From: an uncultured bacterium
GTDB lineage: Bacteria > Fidelibacterota > Marinisomatia > Marinisomatales > UBA1611
Length of the DNA stretch: 64,000 nt
Direction of reading: 5' to 3'
Assembly: GCA_943788175.1 (NCBI GenBank)
Contig: CALSPG010000010.1
Location: forward strand, 13,394-77,393
The translations under genes and the position numbers were made by a program. Shown here in pieces: positions 29,401 to 48,938 of this stretch (positions are counted from its first letter, which is position 1; each line of letters starts with the position of its first letter). The notes below the pieces were generated by a model. The model ran no database searches. It was not told the origin of the DNA and worked only from the letters and a program-made list of their open reading frames with translations.

Positions 29401-29450
29401 TGTTTTTTATAAAGCATAAAGGGAATAATTTCCATGATAATTAAAAAAAT

Positions 29451-29627
29451 AATTTGGGCGGGTTCTGTTAATTCCGGATCGACAATTATATAATTAGGAG
29501 GCTGTACTTCGTTTTCAAAAAACAGGCCTTTCCAAATTTTAATTTGGATCAAGGAAGTTTGCTAAAAGCGGGAGGCCACCACCGTTCTTTAAACTAAGAA
29601 GGGTCCTGAAAACTGCCTGCCCATATT
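29451..29627 (+). ncRNA. ssrS: 6S RNA
   Basis: ~177-nt rod: closing stem TGGGCGGGT/GCCTGCCCA, GGATC/GGTCC helix, AT-rich central bubble (ACAATTATATAATT) opposite a small TTCTT..AAGAA hairpin, GGAGGCT/GGCCACC helix, apical CCAAATT/AATTTGG hairpin. GC-rich island in AT-rich DNA. Folded by eye; no covariance search run. Confidence 0.78.
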
Positions 29628-29636
29628 TCTAAAAAT

Positions 29637-30800
29637 ATGAATAATAATAATAATAATAATAAAAGAAATAGAATTCCGAGAGGCTATCTTCCTGAAGATT
29701 CTGATAGACGTCTAGATTGGCTCAAGAATGAACATGATTTTGAATTAAAAAACCTGCCACCTAATGAAACTGAAGAGTTAAAAGGTATTATAGAAAACCA
29801 TGTCGGTTTTATGCAAATGCCAATGGCAATTGCTGGACCAGCAATCATTGATGGTAAATATGCTAAAGGTGAGTTTGCAATACCTTTATGTACAATTGAA
29901 GGTAGTTTAGCGGCATCAATGAATCGCGGTCTTTATGCATCCTCTTTATGCGGTGGAATGAAGGTAAAACACTTTCGTCAAGAGCTTTCAAGATCACCAA
30001 TTTTTATTTTTGATGATTTAAAAAAGAGTGATAAATTTCAAAACTGGGTAAATGAGCACTTAGATAAAATCAAAAAAGCAGCGCAATCTACCACACAATA
30101 CGGTAAAGTGATTCGAATTGATCAATATGCAATTCAAAATTATGTTTTATTAGATTTTATTCTTGATACTGGGAATGCTGCCGGGCAAAACATGGTAACT
30201 CTAGCCACAAATGTTGCTTGTGAATATATTAGACAAGAAACGGGACATAAATTTTTTCTTGATTCAAATTTAGCCAGCGATAAAAAAGCATCTTCTAGGA
30301 ACATGATACTCGGCAGAGGTCACGGTGTTATTGCAGAAACGCACATAACAAAATCCGTTATGTCTAGGGTCCTTAATGTTGATCCCGATTTTGTTATAGA
30401 AAATTGGACTTACTTTCCTATTGTATCAGCGATGGCGGGAACCCTTGGAAATGCCATCCATGCTTCAAACGCTCTGACAGCAATTTACATTGCAACGGGT
30501 CAAGATACTGCCTGCGTTGCAGAAAACTCTGTTGGACATTTTACAGTGGAAAAAGTTGACGACGGTATTACTTGGAGATTAACCTTACCATCAATGACTG
30601 TTGGCACAGTTGGTGGCGGAACTAGATTAAATCAACAACAACAAAACTTACAACTTTTAGGCTGCGACAGTAGTGAGCATTCATCTAGAAAGCTTGCTGA
30701 AATCATAGCTGCAGCTGCTTTAGGTCTAGAAATTTCATTAGGATCAGCAATCATGTCCCATACATGGACAAGTGCGCATATGAAATACGGTAGAAAATAA
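29637..30800 (+). CDS. Class I HMG-CoA reductase-like acyl-CoA reductase
   Basis: ENHVG, PLCTIEGSLAAS (E88), NAAGQNM, SNLASDKK (K216), GQD (D290), VGTVGGGT, C-terminal AHMK (H381). Confidence 0.9.
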   Translation: MNNNNNNNKRNRIPRGYLPEDSDRRLDWLKNEHDFELKNLPPNETEELKGIIENHVGFMQMPMAIAGPAIIDGKYAKGEFAIPLCTIEGSLAASMNRGLYASSLCGGMKVKHFRQELSRSPIFIFDDLKKSDKFQNWVNEHLDKIKKAAQSTTQYGKVIRIDQYAIQNYVLLDFILDTGNAAGQNMVTLATNVACEYIRQETGHKFFLDSNLASDKKASSRNMILGRGHGVIAETHITKSVMSRVLNVDPDFVIENWTYFPIVSAMAGTLGNAIHASNALTAIYIATGQDTACVAENSVGHFTVEKVDDGITWRLTLPSMTVGTVGGGTRLNQQQQNLQLLGCDSSEHSSRKLAEIIAAAALGLEISLGSAIMSHTWTSAHMKYGRK

Positions 30801-30811
30801 AAAACACTACT

Positions 30812-31537
30812 ATGAATGTACTTGATAACCCCAAGTATTCTCATTTATTAAAACGCCAGCCTTTTTATCATCGTATTGGTAAGACATTGCTATATAACTG
30901 GGCCAAGTTTATTTTTTTTTGGTACACACCACTGAGTGTTTTTGGCAAAGAGAATATTCCCAATGATTCTTTTATTTTTTGCAGCAATCATAATGCTCAT
31001 TTGGATGTCATTGCATTATCTCTTTCAGCAAATAAAAACTTTAATAATGTTGGAATGCTTGCAGCTAAAGACTATTGGTTCGATAACTGGCTTCGAAGAA
31101 ACATAATGAAACCGGTAATGAACCTCATTCCTCTTGGTCGAAAATCACACCTTGGAAAAGATATAACCTTTGAGCAAACTCTAGAATTATCAAATTGTTT
31201 TATGAATGTTGATAAGCGTTGTATTATTATATTTCCTGAGGGAACTAGAGGTCAACCAGATGTATTAAAACGATTTCGAAAAGGTCCAGCACGATTATCA
31301 ATAGGAACAGGAAAACCAATCCTTCCTGCCGTTGTCATGGGTTCAGGAAAATCTTGGCCAAAAGGAAAATTTATTTTTAAACCTGGTAAAATTCATGTTT
31401 ACATTCTAAAGCCTATAGACCCTAATTCATTCACTATAAGAGACAAAAATAATGAAAAAGACCTTTTCAAAACTGCAGAGGCCATGACAAAAGAATTAGA
31501 AGAAAAAATTACGAGTAAATTGGAAGAATTAACATGA
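30812..31537 (+). CDS. PlsC-family glycerolipid acyltransferase (candidate DHAP or lyso-alkyl-G3P acyltransferase)
   Basis: NHNAHLD (HX4D), AAKDYWF, FPEGTRG, PILP motifs. Confidence 0.9.
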   Translation: MNVLDNPKYSHLLKRQPFYHRIGKTLLYNWAKFIFFWYTPLSVFGKENIPNDSFIFCSNHNAHLDVIALSLSANKNFNNVGMLAAKDYWFDNWLRRNIMKPVMNLIPLGRKSHLGKDITFEQTLELSNCFMNVDKRCIIIFPEGTRGQPDVLKRFRKGPARLSIGTGKPILPAVVMGSGKSWPKGKFIFKPGKIHVYILKPIDPNSFTIRDKNNEKDLFKTAEAMTKELEEKITSKLEELT

Positions 31538-33306
31538 GTAGTAGTAAAAAAGAAAAGTTTTATGGAGTAAACGATGAACTCTGGGGCCATAAATGGGGTT
31601 TTAAAGATTCATCTTTTATAATAAATGATGACAATTCTATCACATTTACTGGCGCAAGGTATGATGGAATATCTGGAGAAAAATTGCCTTATCTAATCCC
31701 TTTTGTTACCAAAGTTTTAGATACAGAGATAAATAAGGAACCTTACTTTAAAGAAGTTAAAAAAAAGTTTGTTTCTGAACGGATATTAAACAGAGCGTTT
31801 ATTGATGCAATTGAATCTTCTTTTGCAGAAGATAAACTTTCATTAAGTGATGATGAGAGAATTCTTCACAGCCATGGCCAAAATTCTCCAGATGAAGTTT
31901 TCAAAGTATTGTATGACAAACTTGATAAGTTCACGGATCTTATTATTTATGTTGAAACTGAGGAAGACGTTGTTTTATTAATAGACCTCGCAAAAAAACA
32001 TAATGTGTGTCTTGTCCCATTTGGTGGCGGAACTAATGTCACAAATGCACTCCAGTTACCAAAGAATGAAACTAGAATGATAGTTACTGTTGACACAAGG
32101 AGATTAAATAGAATTATTTCTATAGATCAAAAAAATCTTCTAGTTGAAGTAGAGGCTGGTATTACAGGTAAAGAATTAGAAAAGCAACTTCAAGATAAAG
32201 GGTATACTACTGGCCACCAACCAGATAGTATTGAGCTATCTACTGTAGGTGGCTGGATATCTACTAATGCCGCAGGTATGAAAAAAAACCGATATGGAAA
32301 TATTGAAGATATTGTTCAAAACCTAGTTATGGTCACTCCAAATGGGATAATAAATCAAATTGAGCCACTGGTGAGGTCCTCAATTGGTATAAAAACACAA
32401 AACATTCTTTTCGGTTCTGAAGGCAATCTAGGTATAATAACAAAAGCCACAATGAAAATTCATAGATTACCAGAATGTAGTGACTATGAATCGGTTGTCA
32501 TGAAGGATTGGAATACTGGACTGGATTTTATGTACGAGCTCGCTCACTCAAATACAATACCTGCTAGTGCAAGAATGCTTGATAGTTTACACTATCAATT
32601 TGGAAGCGCATTAAAACCAGAAAAAACAAATTTCGGAAAATTCAAAAGTAAAATTCAAAAGTTAGCATTTAAAATTAAAAATTTCGATGCAGATCATTTT
32701 GTTGCAGCAGTCTTCAAACTAGAAGGAACATTTTCCGAAGTAGAATACCAAAGAAAAAATATAAAAAATCTTGCAAGAAAGTATAATGGATTGCTTGGTG
32801 GTCGCAAGGAAGGAAAAGTTGGTTACAACATAACAATGGTTATAGCATACATACGCGAATTTTTTGTACCACAGGGGATTCTTGGCGAAACTTTAGAAAC
32901 AGCAGTCCCATGGTCAAAAGTAAATCAAGTAAAAGACGAAGCAAATAAACTACTAACAAAATTGCACAAAGAATATAATCTTCCAGGAAAACCATTTTTT
33001 TGTTCAAGAGTTTCAAAAATTTATCACACTGGGGTTTGTATGTATAATACAATGGGAATTAATGTTAGAGGAGTTAAAAACCCTGAAAAAGTTTTTAGTG
33101 ATATTGAGCATAAAATTAGAGCTTGTTTTATTAAAAATGGCGGTTCAATCTCGCATCATCACGGAGTAGGAAAATTGAGGAAAGAGTTTATGCCCGAGAC
33201 CATTTCAATTGGTAGTATTCAGGTGATACAGAATATTAAAAAATCACAAGACCCAGATAACATATTTGGAATTGATAACAATATTGTAAACAAGATTCAG
33301 GATTAA
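31534..33306 (+). CDS. Alkyl-dihydroxyacetonephosphate synthase (AGPS/ADPS)-like flavoenzyme
   Basis: KWGFKDS, VPFGGGTNV, GHQPDSIELSTVGGWISTNAAGMKKNRYGNIEDIV, GSEGNLGIIT, PASARMLD, VIAYIRE, GVCMY, GGSISHHHGVGKLRK, DPDNIFG; all match AGPS-specific blocks as I recall them. Confidence 0.9.
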   Translation: MSSSKKEKFYGVNDELWGHKWGFKDSSFIINDDNSITFTGARYDGISGEKLPYLIPFVTKVLDTEINKEPYFKEVKKKFVSERILNRAFIDAIESSFAEDKLSLSDDERILHSHGQNSPDEVFKVLYDKLDKFTDLIIYVETEEDVVLLIDLAKKHNVCLVPFGGGTNVTNALQLPKNETRMIVTVDTRRLNRIISIDQKNLLVEVEAGITGKELEKQLQDKGYTTGHQPDSIELSTVGGWISTNAAGMKKNRYGNIEDIVQNLVMVTPNGIINQIEPLVRSSIGIKTQNILFGSEGNLGIITKATMKIHRLPECSDYESVVMKDWNTGLDFMYELAHSNTIPASARMLDSLHYQFGSALKPEKTNFGKFKSKIQKLAFKIKNFDADHFVAAVFKLEGTFSEVEYQRKNIKNLARKYNGLLGGRKEGKVGYNITMVIAYIREFFVPQGILGETLETAVPWSKVNQVKDEANKLLTKLHKEYNLPGKPFFCSRVSKIYHTGVCMYNTMGINVRGVKNPEKVFSDIEHKIRACFIKNGGSISHHHGVGKLRKEFMPETISIGSIQVIQNIKKSQDPDNIFGIDNNIVNKIQD

Positions 33307-33309
33307 TCT

Positions 33310-34110
33310 TTGGACCTTGTTAATAAAGTATGCGTAATAACTGGAGCGTCTTCCGGTATTGGAAAATCTTTAGCAACAAAACTTTCCCTAAGAGGTGCTA
33401 AAGTTGTTTTAGCCGCAAGAAGAAACTCTAAACTTGAAGAAATAAGACAAGGCATTGAAAAAGAAGGCGGTAAATGCTTTGGTGTGAAAACAGATATTAC
33501 TAAAAAATTAGAATGTAAGAATCTCATTGATGAGACAATTAATCGATATAAAAAAATAGATATATTAATTCTAGCTGCTGGTGTAAGTATGTGGTCCCCA
33601 TTTGAAGAAATATCTGATATTTCTTTTTTTGATGACCTTATGGCCACTAATTATACTGGTGCAGTCCATTGCGTTCATGCAGCCTTACCTAGCCTTATAT
33701 CAACAAATGGTATGATTGTTTCCTGCTCAACTGCACAAGCGATTGTAGGATTTACAAACCATTCTGGTTATGCTGCCTCAAAACATGCTTTGCACGGTTT
33801 TTTAGATACTTTAGAAATGGAACTTAATGGTAAAGTAAAATTTTTAGAAACTTGTTTGGGTTGGATTAAAGGAACAAATATGCGATCTAATGCATTTGGT
33901 CCTAATGGTAAAAAAATGGGCGAAACAAAAAGAAAACACAGTAGTAATTCTGTTGATCTAGATGTTTGTATTGAAAAAATAATTTCTGCTATAGTAATTG
34001 AAAAAGAGAAAGTTTACATTCCTTGGAAGCTGAAATTGATTCCATTTCTTGATTTATTTTTTGGAAAATTTCTAAGAAACAAAATAAATAGAGCAGTACA
34101 CTCTGAATAA
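33310..34110 (+). CDS. NADPH-type short-chain dehydrogenase/reductase, DHRS7/DHRS7B-like (candidate acyl/alkyl-DHAP reductase)
   Basis: TGASSGIG, ARR (NADP preference), YAASKHALHGFLDTL; TTG start 3 nt after AGPS stop. Confidence 0.8.
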   Translation: MDLVNKVCVITGASSGIGKSLATKLSLRGAKVVLAARRNSKLEEIRQGIEKEGGKCFGVKTDITKKLECKNLIDETINRYKKIDILILAAGVSMWSPFEEISDISFFDDLMATNYTGAVHCVHAALPSLISTNGMIVSCSTAQAIVGFTNHSGYAASKHALHGFLDTLEMELNGKVKFLETCLGWIKGTNMRSNAFGPNGKKMGETKRKHSSNSVDLDVCIEKIISAIVIEKEKVYIPWKLKLIPFLDLFFGKFLRNKINRAVHSE

Positions 34111-34133: not shown

Positions 34134-35279
34134 TTACTTTACCATTTTTAAATATTTAGATATAATTCTCAACATTATTTCGTCTGTACCACCACCTATT
34201 GAGTGGAGTCGTCCATCTCGGTATAGTTTTGCTGCTTGATTTTCCCAAGTGAATCCCATTCCACCATAGTACTGAATACACGTATCAGCAACCTCTCGAA
34301 TTAATCTACCACTCTTTAATTTTGCCATTGATGCCAATAAAGTAACATCCTCGCCTCTGATGTAATTTTCACACGCCCTATATATCAAAGACCTTAAAGC
34401 TTCTACTTCTGTTTTTAACTCAGATAAGCGAAATTGAATTGCTTGATTATCAATTATATTTTTTCCAAATGCTTTTCTTTCGCTACAATATTCTATTGTG
34501 TAATCTATACAATTATCCATTGAAACAAGTATGCTTGCTGCTAGAAAGAGCCTTTCTTCTTGAAACTGCTCCATTTGCATCTTGAAACCATCCCCTTCAA
34601 TTCCAATTCTATATTTTTGAGGAACACATACATTATCAAAATAGACTGGTGCTGTATCTGAAGATCTAAAACCTAGTTTGTCAATTTTATCACCAATACT
34701 TACTCCTTTTGTATTTGACGGTATTATAATTAAGGACTTATTTATATGAGGTTTATCATCACTTGTATTAACTAGCGTACAAAAATAGTCAGCTTGAGTT
34801 GCATTTGTTATCCACATTTTTTGACCATTAATTATGTAATCCTTTCCTCTTTTAATAGCATTAGTTTTTAGCGATGATACATCTGAACCACCACCAACTT
34901 CACTTATAGCAACAGAAGTAACTTTTTCACCTTTAATTGCAGGAACTAAAAACTCCTTTTTTAATTCTTCAGAACCATACCGCTCAAGGGCTGGTGTTGC
35001 CATATCAGTTTGCACACCTATTGCTGTAACTACACCACAATCGTCAGCGTGTCCTAAGGCCTCAGCAAATATTAGACCATAACTATAATCTAAACCCATG
35101 CCGCCAAAATCTTCACTCTTGGTTATACCAAGCAAATCCAGTTTACCCATTTTTTTAAACAAATCATGAGCAGGAAAAAAACCATTTTGTTCCCATTCAT
35201 CGGCAAAAGGTTTGATCTCTTTTTTTACAAATTCTTTTACCGTATTAAACAATGCTTTTTTTTCTTCATTCAAATACAT
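34134..35279 (-). CDS. atuD: Acyl-CoA dehydrogenase, citronellyl-CoA dehydrogenase (AtuD)-like
   Basis: GVQTDMATPAL, SEVGGGSDV, NGQKMWITNATQAD, QFQEERL, SIGGGTDEIM; atu context. Confidence 0.75.
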   Translation of the reverse strand: MYLNEEKKALFNTVKEFVKKEIKPFADEWEQNGFFPAHDLFKKMGKLDLLGITKSEDFGGMGLDYSYGLIFAEALGHADDCGVVTAIGVQTDMATPALERYGSEELKKEFLVPAIKGEKVTSVAISEVGGGSDVSSLKTNAIKRGKDYIINGQKMWITNATQADYFCTLVNTSDDKPHINKSLIIIPSNTKGVSIGDKIDKLGFRSSDTAPVYFDNVCVPQKYRIGIEGDGFKMQMEQFQEERLFLAASILVSMDNCIDYTIEYCSERKAFGKNIIDNQAIQFRLSELKTEVEALRSLIYRACENYIRGEDVTLLASMAKLKSGRLIREVADTCIQYYGGMGFTWENQAAKLYRDGRLHSIGGGTDEIMLRIISKYLKMVK

Positions 35280-35304
35280 TTATTATCCTTTATTGTGATA
35301 TAAA

Positions 35305-36105
35305 TTATTTTTTAATTGTCCACGATGGTTTACGTTTATTAAAAAAAGAGTCAAATCCTTCTCTTCCATCATTACTAATAATACTATCAGAAAATAAATC
35401 AGCTGCTCTCCGGGAATCAATATTTTGGTTTAAGGACAATATTTTTTTAGTAGTCGCTATTGCAGCAGGCGAGCAGTTGATGACATCAGATTTAAAATCG
35501 TTTATTTTTTTTTCAAGTGCCTCATTATTATTTGCAACAAAATCAACCAATCCAATTTTACTTGCCTCCAACCCATCAATTATAGTTCCCAAAAGCATCA
35601 TTTTTCTCGCTTTTGAATAGCCTAATTTATTTATTACATATTTTGAAATTTGTGATGGCGTTAGACCTATTTTAGTTTCAGTGAGACCAAATTTTGTATT
35701 TTCCAAAGATATAACAAAATCTGAAGCACACGCGATCCCAAAACCGCCAGCAAGTGCAAACCCCTCCGTAACCGAAACGACAATTTGAGGCGCTTGATTT
35801 ATCACTTTAAGTAATTTCCCAATGGTCATACTAAAATCATATGCTTGATTTTTAGCTTCTTTTCCTGATTCAGTTATTTTTTTCATTTTTTTTAAATCTG
35901 CTCCAGCACAAAATACACCACCATCACCCCTTAAAAAAATTGCACGAATATCTTTATTATCCTTTGCAACGTCAAAGACAATTAATAGTTCTTCGACTAA
36001 ACTTTCTTTAAGGGAATTCCTGTTTACCGCATTATTAAACAGTATTTCTAGCCAACCATTTTTATTATTTAATATAAGATCTTGTGTTTTTGGAAATTGA
36101 TTCAT
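35305..36105 (-). CDS. atuE: Enoyl-CoA hydratase, isohexenylglutaconyl-CoA hydratase (AtuE)-like
   Basis: FCAGADLK, AGGFGIACASD, FGLTETKIG, KRKPSW; start placed at MNQFP. Confidence 0.7.
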   Translation of the reverse strand: MNQFPKTQDLILNNKNGWLEILFNNAVNRNSLKESLVEELLIVFDVAKDNKDIRAIFLRGDGGVFCAGADLKKMKKITESGKEAKNQAYDFSMTIGKLLKVINQAPQIVVSVTEGFALAGGFGIACASDFVISLENTKFGLTETKIGLTPSQISKYVINKLGYSKARKMMLLGTIIDGLEASKIGLVDFVANNNEALEKKINDFKSDVINCSPAAIATTKKILSLNQNIDSRRAADLFSDSIISNDGREGFDSFFNKRKPSWTIKK

Positions 36106-36142
36106 TCTGTATCCATAATTTAAAAAAGTCTGCCTTAAGTAA

Positions 36143-37765
36143 TTATAACCTAGCGATACCAAAACTATTAGATTTGGTAGTGCGGTTTAACGTTTCCCAA
36201 AATGTATCTAATAAAAAACCGAGGATTTCTCTTGTTTTGACTGGTTCAATAATACCATAGTCTAATCCTCTACCAGAAGTGGTAAAAGCATCAGATTGAG
36301 CATTATATTTTTCAGCAATTTTAATTATTTGGTTTTTCAATTTTTCATTATCTATCTCTACACCTTTTCTTTTAGCAGAACTAATCATAACCTGCTCCAT
36401 GGTTTTTGCAGCTTGTTCTCCTCCCATTACACCAATCATTGCATTAGGCCACGAAAATATAAAATCAGGCTTATAAGCATACCCACACATAGCATAATTT
36501 CCTGCTCCAAAACTAGCACCTATATTAAAAGTTATTTTAGGAACTCTTACATTTGATACCGCTTGAATTAACTTTGCTCCATGTTTAATCATACCAAGTT
36601 GCTCAGATTGTTTTCCAACCATAAACCCAGTTGTATTACTTAAAAATATTAATGGGATATTTGACTGATCACATAATTGAATGAATTGAGCTGCTTTTGT
36701 AGCACCGTTTGGGTCAATGGGGCCATTATTACCTATTACCCCACAGGGATGACCATAAATTTTTGTTTGGATACAGACAGTGGAAACACCATAGAGAGGC
36801 TTAAAATCAATAAAATCAGAACCGTCAACAAGCCTTGCCACAACCTCTCGAACATCGTAAGGGATTTTGTAATCAGCAGAGACAACCCCAATTAATTCAT
36901 TCACATCATAAATTGGATTATCAAACGAGATGTTTTCACGACTCTTTAAACTAGAATTCCAATCAATTTTATCAATTACTTCTCGTGTGATTTTTATGGC
37001 ATGTTCATCATCTTCAGCAAGATATTCTACTAAACCTGTAATTCTTGCATGCATTTCGCTGCCACCTAACTCATCTTTATCTGCGATCTGTCCAGTCGCT
37101 GCTTTTAGCAATGCTGGTCCAGCTAATGCAGCCATTCCATTTTTTTTTACACCTACTACGTAGTCACTCATACCAGGTTGATATGCACCACCTGCCGTAG
37201 ACAGACCATGCAATATTGCAATTGTAGGAATTCCTGCAGCACTAAGTTTTGCAAGTCCATAAAACATACCTCCAGTATTAGACCAAAATTCAACTGTATA
37301 GTTCATTAAATTAATTCCAGCACTTTCAACAAGGTGAATAAATGGTAATTTTTGTTTTAAGGATATTTCTAAGCAACCTAATGCTTTATCAATCGATTTT
37401 GCGGTCAAGGCGCCCGCATTTATTCCACTATCATCAACAAAGACCATACTTCGGACACCACTTATAAATCCAATGCCAGCAATTACACTAGCTCCGGAGA
37501 TGCTAGTATCTTCATTATTATCATCTACTAAATAACTAATCATATTAAATAATTCTATAAAAGACGTATTAGGATCTAATAATGCTGAAAGTCTTTCTCT
37601 AGGAGTAAGCTGCCCTCTTTCAATAAATTTTTCTCTTCGTCTTTCTGACACCTTTTCAGCTCGTCCTTTTATAGAATTCATTTTTTTAATTAACGAACCA
37701 AACTGATTTTTATTATTTATAAAATTCTCGGATTCAGAATCTATTTTAGTTTTAAATATTGTCAT
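36143..37765 (-). CDS. atuC: Acyl-CoA carboxylase beta subunit, geranyl-CoA carboxylase (AtuC)-like
   Basis: RGQLTPRER, HLVESAG, TAGGAYQPGMSDY, NTTGFMVG, GASFGAGNYAMCG, C-terminal FGIARL. Confidence 0.8.
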   Translation of the reverse strand: MTIFKTKIDSESENFINNKNQFGSLIKKMNSIKGRAEKVSERRREKFIERGQLTPRERLSALLDPNTSFIELFNMISYLVDDNNEDTSISGASVIAGIGFISGVRSMVFVDDSGINAGALTAKSIDKALGCLEISLKQKLPFIHLVESAGINLMNYTVEFWSNTGGMFYGLAKLSAAGIPTIAILHGLSTAGGAYQPGMSDYVVGVKKNGMAALAGPALLKAATGQIADKDELGGSEMHARITGLVEYLAEDDEHAIKITREVIDKIDWNSSLKSRENISFDNPIYDVNELIGVVSADYKIPYDVREVVARLVDGSDFIDFKPLYGVSTVCIQTKIYGHPCGVIGNNGPIDPNGATKAAQFIQLCDQSNIPLIFLSNTTGFMVGKQSEQLGMIKHGAKLIQAVSNVRVPKITFNIGASFGAGNYAMCGYAYKPDFIFSWPNAMIGVMGGEQAAKTMEQVMISSAKRKGVEIDNEKLKNQIIKIAEKYNAQSDAFTTSGRGLDYGIIEPVKTREILGFLLDTFWETLNRTTKSNSFGIARL

Positions 37766-37786
37766 TCACTTTACCTATTTTATCGA

Positions 37787-39577
37787 TCAAAAATTATCTT
37801 TTGTTATTTTTTTATAAATTAATTCTGGAATCGCAATCTTTGCATTTAAAATGTATTGAGCATAAGCCTTTCCCTGGGGGTCAAGAAGTAAGCTCGACAT
37901 TCCACCACCTCCTAGACTATTTTTTACTAAAAAGTTCAATCCATTTATTTTTGGTAGCTCCCAGCAAACAACAGATTTTTCAGTACAATTTTTAAAAAAA
38001 GAAGATATTTTTTCCGTAGTCAAAGTTTTTTTTATATATGAAAAATATTCAGGCTCTCTAGAAATAATACCAACGTTTACATGATTACCTTTATCCCCAC
38101 TTCTAGCATATGCCAAATTTATTAAACGAGTTTCAAAACTATAATCGCTAGTATTACCACCTAACTTCGCAGGCGTTGTATTTGAAGAGATATTTAATTT
38201 ATCAGAATTTTCAATTTCAACGGATTCTACGGTATTATTAAAATCAATCTGGCATTTAACTTTCTTTTTATCTAACATAAAAGAAAATAAATTAATTGAC
38301 GGAGAAATTGATGGCCTTCCACCTAAATAGTTCATTATACCCGGAGCCATCCCAGTAGCCGCTTGAGCTATTTCCCTAGATAATATAATAAGAGCTTCTT
38401 TTTCTTCATGCCTTGCAGCAACTCTTAATACCACTTCATTGCTACCTTTGAAATTACTATGATCATTGATATTTTCAGATCCTATTACAGAAACATTAAT
38501 ATCTTTATATGCAGAAAAATTTTGTTCAATAAAAATATCTTTAGTTCTTTTTAAAATGGAATTACCAACAGAGTATGCTTTTTTTACGGCTTTCGGACCA
38601 CCTATAACTAAAGTTGCAACAGTTTTAAATCCGTCTTGGTATGTTGCAGACACTTTATAGAAGTTTGAAGGCCTGTTGCCTTTCACTCCTTTTACCGAAA
38701 CGACATCATTACCCTTATCTTTAATGGAGACATTTGTGAAATCACATATCACATCGGGAAGGAGGTAACTACTCGGATTTCCAATTTCGTACAAAAACTG
38801 TTCTGCAACTGTTCCAAAATTGACAATTCCTCCAGTATTTTTAGGCTTTGTAACAATAAAGTTACCATTTTTTTCTACTTCTATAATTGGAAACCCAATA
38901 TTATCAAACCTTTCTACAGATTCCCAATCAGTAAAGTTTCCACCAGTGCATTGAGCTCCACACTCAATAATGTGCCCTGCTAGACTACCACTAGCAAGGA
39001 GGTCATAGTCATCAGTCTTCCAATCAAATTCATACATTAAAGGACCAAGTACTAAAGCACTATCAACGCATCTGCCAGTAATTACTATATCAGCATCAAG
39101 CTCTAAGGCTGCCTTTATTCCTGGAGCACCTAGATACGCATTCACGCTTAATAAGTTTTCTGGAAGGGACTCATTTGTATCAATTTCTTTGATATTACTT
39201 GAGCGTAAATCTTTTTCAAGATGTAAAAGATCATCACCTTCAAGTATTATAATTTTTAAATCAACAGCTTCTTTTTTTGCTTCTTCAAGCAATGCTTTTC
39301 TACACGCTTCAAGATTCACTCCACCAGCATTACTTATAATTTTGATGTTCTTTTCTTTAATTTTTTTTATTAAAGGACCAACGTGGTTTATAAAATCTTT
39401 AGCATAACCATGACTATTATTTTTTAATTTTGCACCTGCCAAAATTGACATTGAAACCTCTGCTAAGTAGTCAAAAACTAAATAATTAATGTTGCCCTTA
39501 TTTACTAATTGAGGGGCAGCAATATCGGTGTCACCCCAAAACCCTGATGCACAACCTATTTTAACCTTTTTTTTCAA
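37787..39577 (-). CDS. atuA: Acyclic terpene utilization AtuA (DUF1446) protein
   Basis: IGCASGFWGD, VFDYLAEVSMSIL, NAYLGA, TGRCVDSA, GHIIECGAQCTGGNF, ARSGDKG, DPQGK. Confidence 0.93.
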   Translation of the reverse strand: MKKKVKIGCASGFWGDTDIAAPQLVNKGNINYLVFDYLAEVSMSILAGAKLKNNSHGYAKDFINHVGPLIKKIKEKNIKIISNAGGVNLEACRKALLEEAKKEAVDLKIIILEGDDLLHLEKDLRSSNIKEIDTNESLPENLLSVNAYLGAPGIKAALELDADIVITGRCVDSALVLGPLMYEFDWKTDDYDLLASGSLAGHIIECGAQCTGGNFTDWESVERFDNIGFPIIEVEKNGNFIVTKPKNTGGIVNFGTVAEQFLYEIGNPSSYLLPDVICDFTNVSIKDKGNDVVSVKGVKGNRPSNFYKVSATYQDGFKTVATLVIGGPKAVKKAYSVGNSILKRTKDIFIEQNFSAYKDINVSVIGSENINDHSNFKGSNEVVLRVAARHEEKEALIILSREIAQAATGMAPGIMNYLGGRPSISPSINLFSFMLDKKKVKCQIDFNNTVESVEIENSDKLNISSNTTPAKLGGNTSDYSFETRLINLAYARSGDKGNHVNVGIISREPEYFSYIKKTLTTEKISSFFKNCTEKSVVCWELPKINGLNFLVKNSLGGGGMSSLLLDPQGKAYAQYILNAKIAIPELIYKKITKDNF

Positions 39578-45940: not shown

Positions 45941-46695
45941 TAATCTACTATATTATTAAATATGTCTTGCATGTCAAGTACACTAATTGTTAAATCAATT
46001 GCTACGGATTTTTCAAGGACTGTTCCAGGCTTTAATGATTGATCTAAAACTGTATATGGAATTAAATCTTCATTTTGCCTGTAGTAAACTTTACCTAAAG
46101 AAAATCCAGACTTTTCAATTTCAACTATTGCTTTTTTTTTGCTTAATCCAAAAATATTTGGAGCTTGAAAAAAATTTGGAGGGACACCTAAACTAATTGT
46201 TAAATGAATACCCATACCCCTACTCAGCATATCACCACCTTTGGGATATTGCCATGTAACATTTCCGGCTGGAACATCAGAATTATATTCTTTATATACA
46301 GTATCTATTTCAAGTCCAACTTGACTTATATCTAGCTCTGCACTTCGTTCGGACCTGCCTATTAAATCTGGCACCATCACAGAACGCTCAGCATTCGCGA
46401 TTGTTAACCGTACCGTTCTACCTTCTTTTACTTTCATATTGGTAGAGGGATATTGATCTATAACAATACCTGGGTTAAATGCTGATGAAAACAGTGTATC
46501 TGAGACTAATCCTCTGTGACCCTCAGAGGACAATATATCCAACGCATATTCTAACTGTTTACCCTCAACATTTACCATATAACTCCCTTGCCCATGCCTT
46601 ACATATAATGGCATTAAAAGCGAATCAAAGAGCAAAACTGACACGATTATAATCGAACCTAGACAAGCAATATAATATTTAAGATTTATTCTCAA
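45940..46695 (-). CDS. PASTA-domain membrane protein (3 repeats)
   Basis: N-terminal TM; repeats with V.G / VPDLIG / PNIFG ... VIDQYP/TWQYP/VLDQS. Confidence 0.88.
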   Translation of the reverse strand: MRINLKYYIACLGSIIIVSVLLFDSLLMPLYVRHGQGSYMVNVEGKQLEYALDILSSEGHRGLVSDTLFSSAFNPGIVIDQYPSTNMKVKEGRTVRLTIANAERSVMVPDLIGRSERSAELDISQVGLEIDTVYKEYNSDVPAGNVTWQYPKGGDMLSRGMGIHLTISLGVPPNFFQAPNIFGLSKKKAIVEIEKSGFSLGKVYYRQNEDLIPYTVLDQSLKPGTVLEKSVAIDLTISVLDMQDIFNNIVD

Positions 46696-48013
46696 TTTTT
46701 CTTCTGTAAAACGGCAGCAAAAAGACCGTCCGTCTTTGTTTTATACGGCACTGCAAACATGAATCCATTAGAATTTACCCATTGATCAGGCAATAATGAA
46801 TGAGTTACTAATAATTTAAAATCTGATCTCTGTTTTAAAAATTTATTTACAACATCTTCATTTTCTTCTATTTCTAAAGAGCAAGTTGAATATACTATCT
46901 TACCGTTTGGAGATAAAAATTTAGCCATATGGTTAAGAATGTTAATTTGTAATTCTGACATCTTTTTTATATCTTGAGATCTTAATCGCCATTTTATATC
47001 TGGCCTTCTTCCAATTGCGCCCGTTCCAGTGCAGGGAACGTCAATCAGAATTTTGTTATAAGTAGGAAACTTATCTTTTGTTGCATCTAAAACCGACCAT
47101 TGAATGTTTTTATAATTGTGTCTTCCTATATCTAATATACCACTATCTACTCGTTTTTTATTTTTATCGGAAGCATAAATCTTTCCTCCTAATCCCACTC
47201 TTTGAGCCATATATAATGATTTCGTACCAGGAGCTGCACAGGCATCTAAAATAATATCGTTTTTTTAGGATTAATTAAGTCTACAACTGCACCTGATGCT
47301 GGATCTTGAATAGATATCTTACCATCTTTGAAAATTTCAGTTTCAAATATTTTTTCTTTACCCTTAATTACTTTAAAAAAATTTTTAAATTTACTTTGCC
47401 TTGATAGTTCTATGTTAATTTTTGAAAAATTAGAAATCATACTTTCTTCACTGATTTTACTTTCATCTAGTCTTATGTAAATCGGTGCTTTTTTTATAAG
47501 AAACGAACACAATTTTTCTGTATCGTATTTGCCAAATTGTTTTTGCCACTTTTTTATTAACCAATTTGGATATGCTAATTTTATGTTCTTTTCAAATAAA
47601 GAATCTTTCCAACCGCCATGTTTTGCATTGTGCCTTTGTATATTTCGCATAACTGCGTTAACCATAGATCCGGTTTTTTTATTAATAACTTTTTTTGCAA
47701 GATCGACACTTGAATGTATAGCAGCAAAATCAGGTATTAAATCATCGAAAAGAAGTTCATATATACCTAATCTTAAAACATTCATTAGCTTAGGTTGTAT
47801 AAACTCAACCTTTCTTCTAGAGCCTTTTTCAATGACAAAATCTAATATTCCGCGATAACGAATGACCTCATTTACACTAGCCTTTATACGATTTTTTTCA
47901 TTTTTTGATAGTATTATATTTTTAAAAGATTGCTTTATTAGGATGGGGACTTTTTCTTTTTTAGTATCAAAATTGTTAAGGATACCTAAAGCTATTTTAC
48001 GTGTTGATATCAT
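46692..48013 (-). CDS. rsmB: 16S rRNA m5C967 methyltransferase RsmB (NusB-like + MTase); frameshifted at an A7 run ~47260
   Basis: LRLGIYEL, VNAVMR, QD; adding one A restores PKKNDIILDACAAPGTK; DVPCTGTG and YSTCS downstream. Confidence 0.92.
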
Positions 48014-48938
48014 TAGAAAAATAATCACCTACTTTTATATCTGAACCTTTTAAAAATTCTTCAATAGTTAATCTTTTTTTCCCTTCTTGCTGTAATTCAA
48101 GAATCGAAACTAAGCCGTCTCCTGAATTCACTTCTACAGCTGAGCTACTAACACTATGTATGATACCAGCTTTTTCGACATTAGTATTCCTAACTAGTTT
48201 TACTTTAAATATTTTTAATTTCTTTTTGTTATATAAAGTATACATTCCTGGCCAAGGTGACAATCCTCGAATCCAGTTATTTATTTTATTACTTGACCAA
48301 GTCCAATCAATTTGCAACATTTTCTTAGTAATCTTTGGTGCCTTGGTAGATTTTGTATTGTCTTGTCTAAATAATTTTGCACTACCTAGCTCTATTTCGC
48401 TCAGTGCTTTTAATAAAGATTTACTCCCTAAAGTAGATAGTCTATTTGAAAGAGTCTCGAAGTCATCTTCATTCAAGATATCAATTTTATCTTGATAAAT
48501 AATTTTTCCAGTATCTACTTTTTTCTCAATTTGAAAAATACTAATACCTGTATTTTTATCTCCATTCATTAAAGCCCATTGTATCGGAGCGGCTCCTCTA
48601 TAACTTGGCAATATTGAAGCATGAATATTGACTGCTCCAAACTTTGGTATATCGATGTACCTCTGCGGTAATATTCTAAAAGCAACAACAATAAATATAT
48701 CCACTTTCAACGAAACAATTTCTTCATAAGTGTCTTCATCTTTAAAAGAACCTAATTCGATTAATCTTATTTTATTATCAATTGCAAACTGACCAACATC
48801 TGTGTGCTGGCGTGTCTTTTTTCTCCCCATTCGTTTTGGTGGATTTGATATAATAGCACAAATGTCGTGCCTACTCTTTAAAATTTCTTTTAGCGGGTCA
48901 ATAGAAAATCGAGGGTTTCCCATGAACGCAACTTTCAA
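47997..48938 (-). CDS. fmt: Methionyl-tRNA formyltransferase
   Basis: FMGNP.F, NIHASILPSYRGAAPIQ, DTG, IRGLSPWPG. Confidence 0.97.
   Translation of the reverse strand: MKVAFMGNPRFSIDPLKEILKSRHDICAIISNPPKRMGRKKTRQHTDVGQFAIDNKIRLIELGSFKDEDTYEEIVSLKVDIFIVVAFRILPQRYIDIPKFGAVNIHASILPSYRGAAPIQWALMNGDKNTGISIFQIEKKVDTGKIIYQDKIDILNEDDFETLSNRLSTLGSKSLLKALSEIELGSAKLFRQDNTKSTKAPKITKKMLQIDWTWSSNKINNWIRGLSPWPGMYTLYNKKKLKIFKVKLVRNTNVEKAGIIHSVSSSAVEVNSGDGLVSILELQQEGKKRLTIEEFLKGSDIKVGDYFSNDINT

Follow-up and report, generated by a model that had tools for sequence, protein, structure and literature searches.

An HMG-CoA reductase homolog of probable FcrA type heads a putative ether-lipid operon in Marinimicrobia (SAR406)

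The locus

The window analysed here, a stretch of 64,000 nucleotides from an uncultured bacterium, contains an open reading frame whose single Pfam domain is HMG-CoA_red (E 2.8e-105). Directly downstream of this predicted reductase are three co-directional genes, assigned to a PlsC-family acyltransferase, an alkylglycerone-phosphate synthase (AGPS) and a short-chain dehydrogenase/reductase (SDR) (Table 1). The genes are tightly packed: the acyltransferase starts 11 bp past the stop of the reductase gene, the AGPS gene follows at a spacing of -4 bp and the SDR starts 3 bp past the AGPS stop. The original prediction had focused on the reductase and overlooked these three ether-lipid genes, which are the main point of the locus. 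An atu-like acyclic terpene utilisation cluster converges on the operon, beside which it is not conserved. Elsewhere in the window, an RsmB/F-like rRNA methyltransferase is present as two ORFs, possibly split or frameshifted.

Table 1. Features of the window (positions are those of the whole stretch)
Feature	Position	Strand	Remarks
Conserved structured RNA, 6S-RNA-like	29450..29630	+	~180 nt; ends a few bases before the ATG of the fcrA-like gene
FcrA-type fatty acyl-CoA reductase (predicted)	29637..30800	+	387 aa; class I HMGR fold, without N-terminal Lad-type extension
PlsC-family acyltransferase	30812..31537	+	241 aa; HX4D (H59-D64), FPEGTR at 141; putative DHAP acyltransferase
Alkylglycerone-phosphate (alkyl-DHAP) synthase, AGPS	31534..33306	+	590 aa; 4-bp overlap with the acyltransferase stop
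Classical SDR	33310..34110	+	266 aa; TGASSGIG at 11, YAASK at 154; NF004825 above cutoff
atu-like acyclic terpene utilisation cluster	34134-39577	-	AtuA, carboxyltransferase, enoyl-CoA hydratase and acyl-CoA dehydrogenase genes
RsmB/F-like rRNA methyltransferase	46692-48028	-	two ORFs (NusB and ferredoxin-like part; methyltransferase part)

A class I HMG-CoA reductase fold with changed residues at substrate-pocket positions

The nearest solved relatives of the reductase are class I HMG-CoA reductases (HMGRs; 6hr7, E 9e-72). Its AlphaFold model, computed from a 111-sequence alignment, has a mean pLDDT of 95.2 and superposes on class I HMGR at TM 0.79-0.85, with 28-36% identity in structural alignments. 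Like the canonical enzymes (human 1DQ9/2q1l and Methanothermococcus 6hr7), the reductase retains the fold, the catalytic residues and most cis-loop residues. The catalytic tetrad is intact, as originally claimed, and is carried by the motifs TIEG at 86-89 (E88), SDKK at 214-217 (K216), GQD at 288-290 (D290) and SAHM at 379-382 (H381), while the equivalents of human R590, D690, K692, H752 and N755 are kept as R119, D215, K217, H275 and N278.

In contrast to canonical class I HMGRs, the reductase reads NAAGQN instead of DAMGMN at 180-185, a change correctly recognised in the original prediction. Alignment to class I HMGRs further revealed that S684, K735 and L862 (human numbering) are all replaced, and the NCBIfam model TIGR00533 gives a score of 285.9 bits, under its cutoff of 441.8. 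The proposed loss of K735 also held: residues 255-268 are ENWTYFPIVSAMAG, which is Lys-free, and K735 corresponds to Y259 when the protein is aligned pairwise with the human chain or to F260 in both the 6hr7 alignment and the multiple alignment, in agreement with the two positions originally named. In 29 of 29 family relatives, E88, K216, D290, H381, NAAGQN and P261 are invariant, and none has a Lys at 259 or 260. Since these features are common to all 29 relatives, sequence comparison excludes both sequencing error and a decaying gene as the origin of the K735 loss and the motif changes.

Similarity to FcrA

FcrA, a class I HMGR homologue, has been described by Grossi et al. (2025; PMC11948995). 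According to the main text of that paper, purified Pb-FcrA from Ca. Promineifilum breve oxidises NADPH in the presence of acyl-CoA of at least 14 carbons (C14+), giving the alcohol; HMG-CoA is not reduced and simvastatin does not inhibit the enzyme. Two pocket changes relative to HMGR are reported there, with Glu in place of S684 (Glu360) and a bulky side chain in place of L862 (Trp528 in N. pharaonis), along with a third, stated as a tendency, in which a "generally small" residue (Gly411) replaces the HMG-binding Lys. This Lys is printed as Lys795 in PMC11948995 and is K735 by the human alignment used here. The conserved Trp has been proposed to select against branched chains, and the role of FcrA in Natronomonas and Ca. 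Promineifilum was assigned to wax-ester storage lipids (PMC11948995).

Compared with FcrA as presented in that text, the reductase shares the class I core with its tetrad (E559/K691/D767/H866 equivalents), an acidic residue at S684, a Trp at L862 and the loss of K735. The S684 equivalent is D209, where 24 of the 29 relatives have E and 5 have D, and the L862 equivalent is W377, where 19 have W and 10 have F. The spacing of the catalytic residues is also identical, with 74 positions for both K367-D441 (N. pharaonis numbering) and K216-D290 and 91 for both D441-H532 and D290-H381. As reported for an FcrA host, a mevalonate pathway was not found in the genome.

The reductase nevertheless differs from the assayed FcrA by the lack of an N-terminal extension (387 aa, while ~513-aa relatives bear PF25653). 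The assayed enzyme belongs to the Lad-domain branch and the reductase to a separate one, Lad-type proteins other than the assayed sequence itself being ~40% identical to it. In place of G411 of N. pharaonis FcrA (PMC11948995), the reductase has a bulky F260-P261. Position 260 is F in 16, Y in 7, G in 4, L in 1 and A in 1 of the relatives (F/Y in 23), which contrasts with the published small-residue tendency, the register shifting by one between alignments. Based on sequence, F260 could shorten or reshape the substrate pocket, and the invariant P261 may reorient the side chain at the K735 site. In a sister branch, position 260 is Gly and position 377 is Phe, with identical operon order.

In a phylogenetic tree, six HMGRs with the canonical DAMGMN motif form their own clade (support 1.0), with the reductase outside; the tree is rooted on a single class II sequence without support (0.03) and is built without the reference sequences of PMC11948995. 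At the 50% level, great diversity is seen in the FcrA-like family (P0001-P0150), which includes many multi-domain forms of 750-1500 aa.

Collectively, these comparisons indicate that the reductase is most likely a member of the recently described FcrA family. It would probably catalyze NADPH-dependent reduction of long-chain acyl-CoA; FcrA is characterised by an elongated pocket for a C14+ chain and by the lack of HMG-CoA activity (PMC11948995). The originally proposed shift in specificity from HMG-CoA to an alcohol-forming reduction of long-chain acyl-CoA is supported by the FcrA residues, by the presence of MEP and not mevalonate genes, by the coupling to AGPS and by a natural replacement with a fatty acyl-CoA reductase (FAR), both considered below. 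This part of the prediction is probably right but not new: the idea of a "new type" of reductase had been overtaken by the description and assay of the family as FcrA in 2025 (PMC11948995).

Metabolic background of the genome

The genome that contains the window is 92% complete and has one PF00368 gene. As to whether it uses the MEP or the mevalonate pathway, a question raised by the original prediction, the MEP genes Dxr, IspG and IspE are present, whereas HMG-CoA synthase and diphosphomevalonate decarboxylase were not found in this genome by searches whose positive controls were detected. One GHMP kinase of this genome is without assignment; it scores 108 bits against a mevalonate-kinase cutoff of 163, and galactokinase scores similarly. 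A true mevalonate cluster occurs in another family of the phylum (L122, G060:C1) and comprises an HMGR-GHMP kinase fusion, a second GHMP kinase and diphosphomevalonate decarboxylase.

In the window's genome, a wax synthase (WS/DGAT) was not found with the PF03007 profile, whose control was silent, or by tblastn with the WS/DGAT domain of locus L117 (E<=1). Similarly, a canonical FAR was not found in this genome with profiles including PF03015 (control silent) or in a search with the FAR of genome G243 (E<=1e-20), nor was a CarF/PEDS1 desaturase with the PF10520 profile (control silent).

A compact set of putative ether-lipid genes

The second gene of the operon has two more distant PlsC paralogs (26% identity) elsewhere in the genome. 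Its product is 23-33% identical to the acyltransferase parts of 18 FAR-acyltransferase fusions, with no clear separation from the housekeeping paralog (25-31%). The third gene product matches guinea-pig AGPS (4bby) with an E-value of 3.5e-127 over residues 19-582 and the Dictyostelium enzyme with 1e-78, the next non-AGPS family following at 2.8e-24. Its residues R347, R441, Y504 and H541-543 align with guinea-pig R419, R515, Y578 and H615-617, which we take to be active-site residues, and they are kept in 19 of 19 operon AGPS sequences examined. Assignment of the SDR as an alkyl-DHAP reductase is the weakest of these predictions.

In the established pathway, AGPS needs acyl-DHAP and a fatty alcohol, and its product is then reduced (FAR, GNPAT and AGPS in the main text of PMC13012113). 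The cluster would hold one gene for each of these needs, provided that the HMGR-like gene is the alcohol source. The four genes thus likely constitute a compact ether-lipid pathway.

Distribution of the operon

Among 54 genomes of the family, all four genes are present in 33, none in 19 and a partial set in two, at apparent contig ends (reductase in 35; acyltransferase, AGPS and SDR in 34 each). In a phylum sample of 301 genomes, AGPS counted at no less than 45% identity and PF00368 occur together in 46 genomes, close AGPS alone in 2, PF00368 alone in 3 and neither in 250 (totals of 48 and 49, respectively). The two genes are adjacent in 43 of the 46 double-positive genomes, with a gap of 724-871 bp, and lie on separate contigs in the other three. 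Of the three genomes with PF00368 only, two were inspected, one having a true mevalonate cluster and one a long FcrA type; of the two with AGPS only, one (G236) has the acyltransferase at a contig start and the other (G243) carries the FAR swap described below.

Nine genomes with distant AGPS-like genes (27-32% identity) were scored as lacking AGPS; none of these genes co-occurs with PF00368, and the three inspected are fused to or beside glycerol-3-phosphate oxidase genes. This second AGPS-like group of the phylum (L125, L126 and L121; ~30% identity, HQH for HHH in two) has, in two loci, a FadR-type regulator on one side and a GDPD gene on the other, and looks catabolic from its neighbours. 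Agps homologues have been counted in 49 of 134 Marinisomatota MAGs, in a text that describes neither FcrA nor the operon in the parts available to us (PMC11868695); such loose "agps" counts may mix the two groups.

In GTDB, plsC-AGPS is directly downstream of the reductase gene in 22 of the best 80 of 596 confirmed loci, some of which are short downstream of the reductase: in 22 of 25 loci at 46% identity or more and in 0 of 55 below. These 22 comprise 14 close loci and 8 outside, from Spirochaetota, Gemmatimonadales, Bacteroidota, Planctomycetes (3), Ignavibacteria and Caldithrix. The host is likely Marinimicrobia (SAR406), as this is the label of 8 of the 14 closest loci and also the name of a cluster-mate of a 66% identical homologue. 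The SDR is absent from the Spirochaetota locus (L054). A hit was obtained in 3 of 167 genomes of the phylum of the Caldithrix locus, all three FcrA-led, and in 2 of 301 of the class of the Ignavibacteria locus, both FcrA-led. Outside Marinimicrobia the operon is sporadic, and in the Caldithrix and Ignavibacteria groups it is rare. All these counts cover related genomes and are not independent samples; retention of the operon across phyla and the FAR swap do not depend on such independence. A metagenome locus scan with the reductase protein alone returned one short locus, and the sequencing runs that contain the stretch are marine or seawater where labelled.

A natural replacement of the reductase by FAR

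One genome of the same class as the window's genome, G243 (94% complete), has no PF00368 gene and carries an operon of the order FAR-plsC-AGPS-SDR. The first slot is thus filled by a canonical FAR of 563 aa, with PF07993 (E 8e-65) and PF03015. The AGPS, SDR and acyltransferase of this operon are 70, 56 and 55% identical to those of an FcrA-led operon (genome G303), and the AGPS is sister to an FcrA-led one (70% identity, support 0.998), nested among FcrA-led operons. In the order to which G243 belongs, 4 of 5 operons are FcrA-led. The swap was seen in G243 only among the 301 phylum genomes.

A fatty-alcohol role of the first slot is supported by this swap, because an unrelated family known for fatty alcohols occupies the same slot of an orthologous operon; among the evidence for function that is independent of residue homology, it is the strongest. 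Because G243 retains the SDR next to FAR, the swap also speaks against the SDR as the alcohol source.

Proposed pathway and alternatives

A mechanism can be proposed in which the PlsC-like enzyme would acylate dihydroxyacetone phosphate and the FcrA-type enzyme would use 2 NADPH and the HMGR tetrad to release CoA and a fatty alcohol, the charged and branched HMG being kept out by D209 and W377. AGPS would then swap the acyl group for the alcohol, forming the ether bond, and the SDR would reduce the resulting alkyl-DHAP to 1-alkyl-glycerol-3-phosphate, leaving housekeeping enzymes to finish. We consider it quite probable that the reductase catalyzes this NADPH-dependent four-electron conversion of acyl-CoA to an alcohol used by AGPS, with 1-alkyl-glycerol-3-phosphate formed after the SDR, the activities, chain length and product all being predicted ones. 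The observations behind this ether-lipid reading are the residues, the fold, the gene order, the co-occurrence of the genes and the FAR swap. The product is likely an alkyl ether rather than a plasmalogen, because the CarF/PEDS1 desaturase was not found by profile (control silent).

Other readings were weighed against this one. An unlikely alternative is an FcrA-type reductase in an operon whose product, newly made or remodelled, is not a membrane alkyl-ether phospholipid; the alcohol joined by the AGPS-like flavoenzyme may, for example, be short, branched or scavenged, or the substrates of the acyltransferase and SDR may be different ones. The bulky F260-P261 at the pocket-extension site, an acyltransferase about as close to FAR-fusion acyltransferases as the housekeeping paralog is, and the loss of the SDR at L054 would be in line with such a product. 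However, the sister branch with Gly260 retains the identical operon, a canonical long-chain FAR is able to fill the slot in G243, and the AGPS active site is kept in all operon sequences examined. That the gene is a genuine HMGR, biosynthetic or mevalonate-degrading, appears highly improbable. It would account for the fold, the tetrad and the five further conserved residues (R119, D215, K217, H275 and N278), but not for the sub-cutoff TIGR00533 score, the change of S684, K735 and L862 alike or the position outside the DAMGMN clade; in addition, MEP genes are present, HMGS and MVD were not found in the genome, and the real mevalonate cluster of the phylum has a different HMGR-GHMP fusion.

There is likewise very little chance that the enzyme serves the storage of wax esters in the way of Natronomonas and Ca. 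Promineifilum. The main text of PMC11948995 gives this as the role for which FcrA was assayed, but the WS/DGAT searches of the genome found none and the gene is tied to AGPS instead. The citronellyl-CoA and phytanoyl-CoA substrates suggested in the original prediction found little support. An action on acyl-CoA of this branched or terpenoid kind (citronellyl-, geranyl- or phytanoyl-CoA), in conjunction with the neighbouring atu-like cluster, is suggested by the genes of that cluster but seems most doubtful, as the cluster is on the opposite strand and, among the best 80 of 596 GTDB loci, a single one (L040, 98% identical) has atu-like genes next to the operon; moreover, the conserved Trp has been proposed to exclude branched chains (PMC11948995).

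Comparison with known ether-lipid systems

The ether-lipid reading brings the operon close to MXAN_1676-1675-1674 of Myxococcus xanthus and to the animal peroxisomal FAR-GNPAT-AGPS system, in which AGPS is likewise grouped with an acyltransferase, an NAD(P)-dependent enzyme and a source of fatty alcohol, as the main text of PMC13012113 presents them. Compared with these pathways, the alcohol source here has an HMGR fold and is not a male-sterility-type FAR, and the acyltransferase is a stand-alone PlsC-type enzyme, not part of a FAR-GNPAT fusion. With respect to the aerobic plasmalogen pathway (FAR, GNPAT and AGPS together with PEDS1; PMC13012113), only the alkyl-ether part is matched, PEDS1/CarF and canonical FAR not having been found in the window's genome by profiles with silent controls. 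A survey requiring these four enzymes counts 73 GTDB genomes (main text of PMC13012113) and would not list FcrA-led genomes.

The reductase also differs in its setting from the wax-linked FcrA, since it is part of a compact AGPS operon in a genome where wax synthase was not found. Next to Pb-fcrA, AGPS is nine genes away, which was cited in support of the speculation that some FcrA supply ether-lipid synthesis, and in one other bacterium a PlsC-like gene adjoins fcrA; neither was tested in that study, as far as its main text goes (PMC11948995). Marinimicrobia are unmentioned in the main text of the same paper. HMG and Marinimicrobia are likewise unmentioned in the main texts of PMC13012113, PMC13159169 and bioRxiv 10.64898/2026.06.23.733905, and FcrA is absent from those of PMC13012113 and of the bioRxiv paper. 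A description of the operon was not found in the literature covered, which consisted mainly of open main texts, to the exclusion of most subscription papers and supplements (Figs S9-S13 of PMC11948995 may include the branch). The operon is hence most likely an undescribed variant of the AGPS ether-lipid pathway built on an already known enzyme class. For one cultured genus whose MAGs contain elbD homologues, the part of PMC11868695 available to us reports that no ether lipids were detected.

Implications

With chances that we place slightly short of even, a sizeable part of Marinimicrobia (SAR406) makes non-isoprenoid alkyl-ether membrane lipids through a self-contained, four-gene, peroxisome-like pathway, in which an HMGR-fold enzyme replaces FAR and is interchangeable with it. 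To our knowledge, it is not settled where the monoalkyl glycerol ethers of the water column come from, and our literature search found no relevant papers on them. If the proposal is true, Marinimicrobia would be an unrecognised source of ocean-water alkyl glycerol ethers, and this abundant, uncultured marine phylum could be named as a producer of alkyl ether lipids along with a pathway for them (both key genes occur in 46 of 301 genomes). As the AGPS step does not require oxygen, the route could be active in oxygen-minimum zones. Surveys based on canonical FAR would miss such producers and undercount bacterial ether-lipid makers, and annotations as "HMG-CoA reductase", with the mevalonate pathway that they falsely suggest, would be corrected. 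That the FcrA enzyme class is already known caps the surprise; the published speculation that FcrA feeds ether lipids would become a concrete 4.5-kb cassette, testable in E. coli, with the FAR-for-FcrA swap as a built-in natural control.

Upstream RNA and expression signals

The structured RNA upstream of the reductase gene, a long hairpin opened by a bubble at its centre (z -2.6), gives a weak Rfam match to 6S (16.6 bits, E 0.26). It was found by blastn in 15 of 109 loci, and two-sided changes occur at 14 of 35 consensus pairs (13 sequences). In the loci of 11 relatives, no Rfam match was obtained up to E 0.5. This RNA is likely a divergent 6S RNA missed by Rfam, because the window's genome has no 6S above threshold in Rfam searches; it is probably outside the lipid function. 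A promoter and terminator scan was uninformative: promoter-like sites numbered 22 where 20.3 were expected, and a single terminator compared with an expectation of 2.8. Four RNA runs, all of which may contain DNA, were examined as assembled contigs, one of them flat at ~12x over genes and intergenic DNA.

Other gene contexts of FcrA-type genes

Among the longer, more distant FcrA-type genes, the next gene downstream encodes an ABC1/UbiB-type atypical kinase in 15 of the loci scanned (L066, L069, L073, L074, L086, L087, L088, L091, L094, L095, L098, L107, L109, L110 and L113), an LPG_synthase_C protein in four (L067, L070, L076 and L093) and a wax synthase in one (L117). These neighbours suggest further, undescribed uses of FcrA alcohols. 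In a Parachlamydiales-labelled locus (L057:6992-10399), a short FcrA-type gene is followed not by plsC-AGPS but by a PF04116 fatty acid hydroxylase-family gene and a FadL-type transporter.
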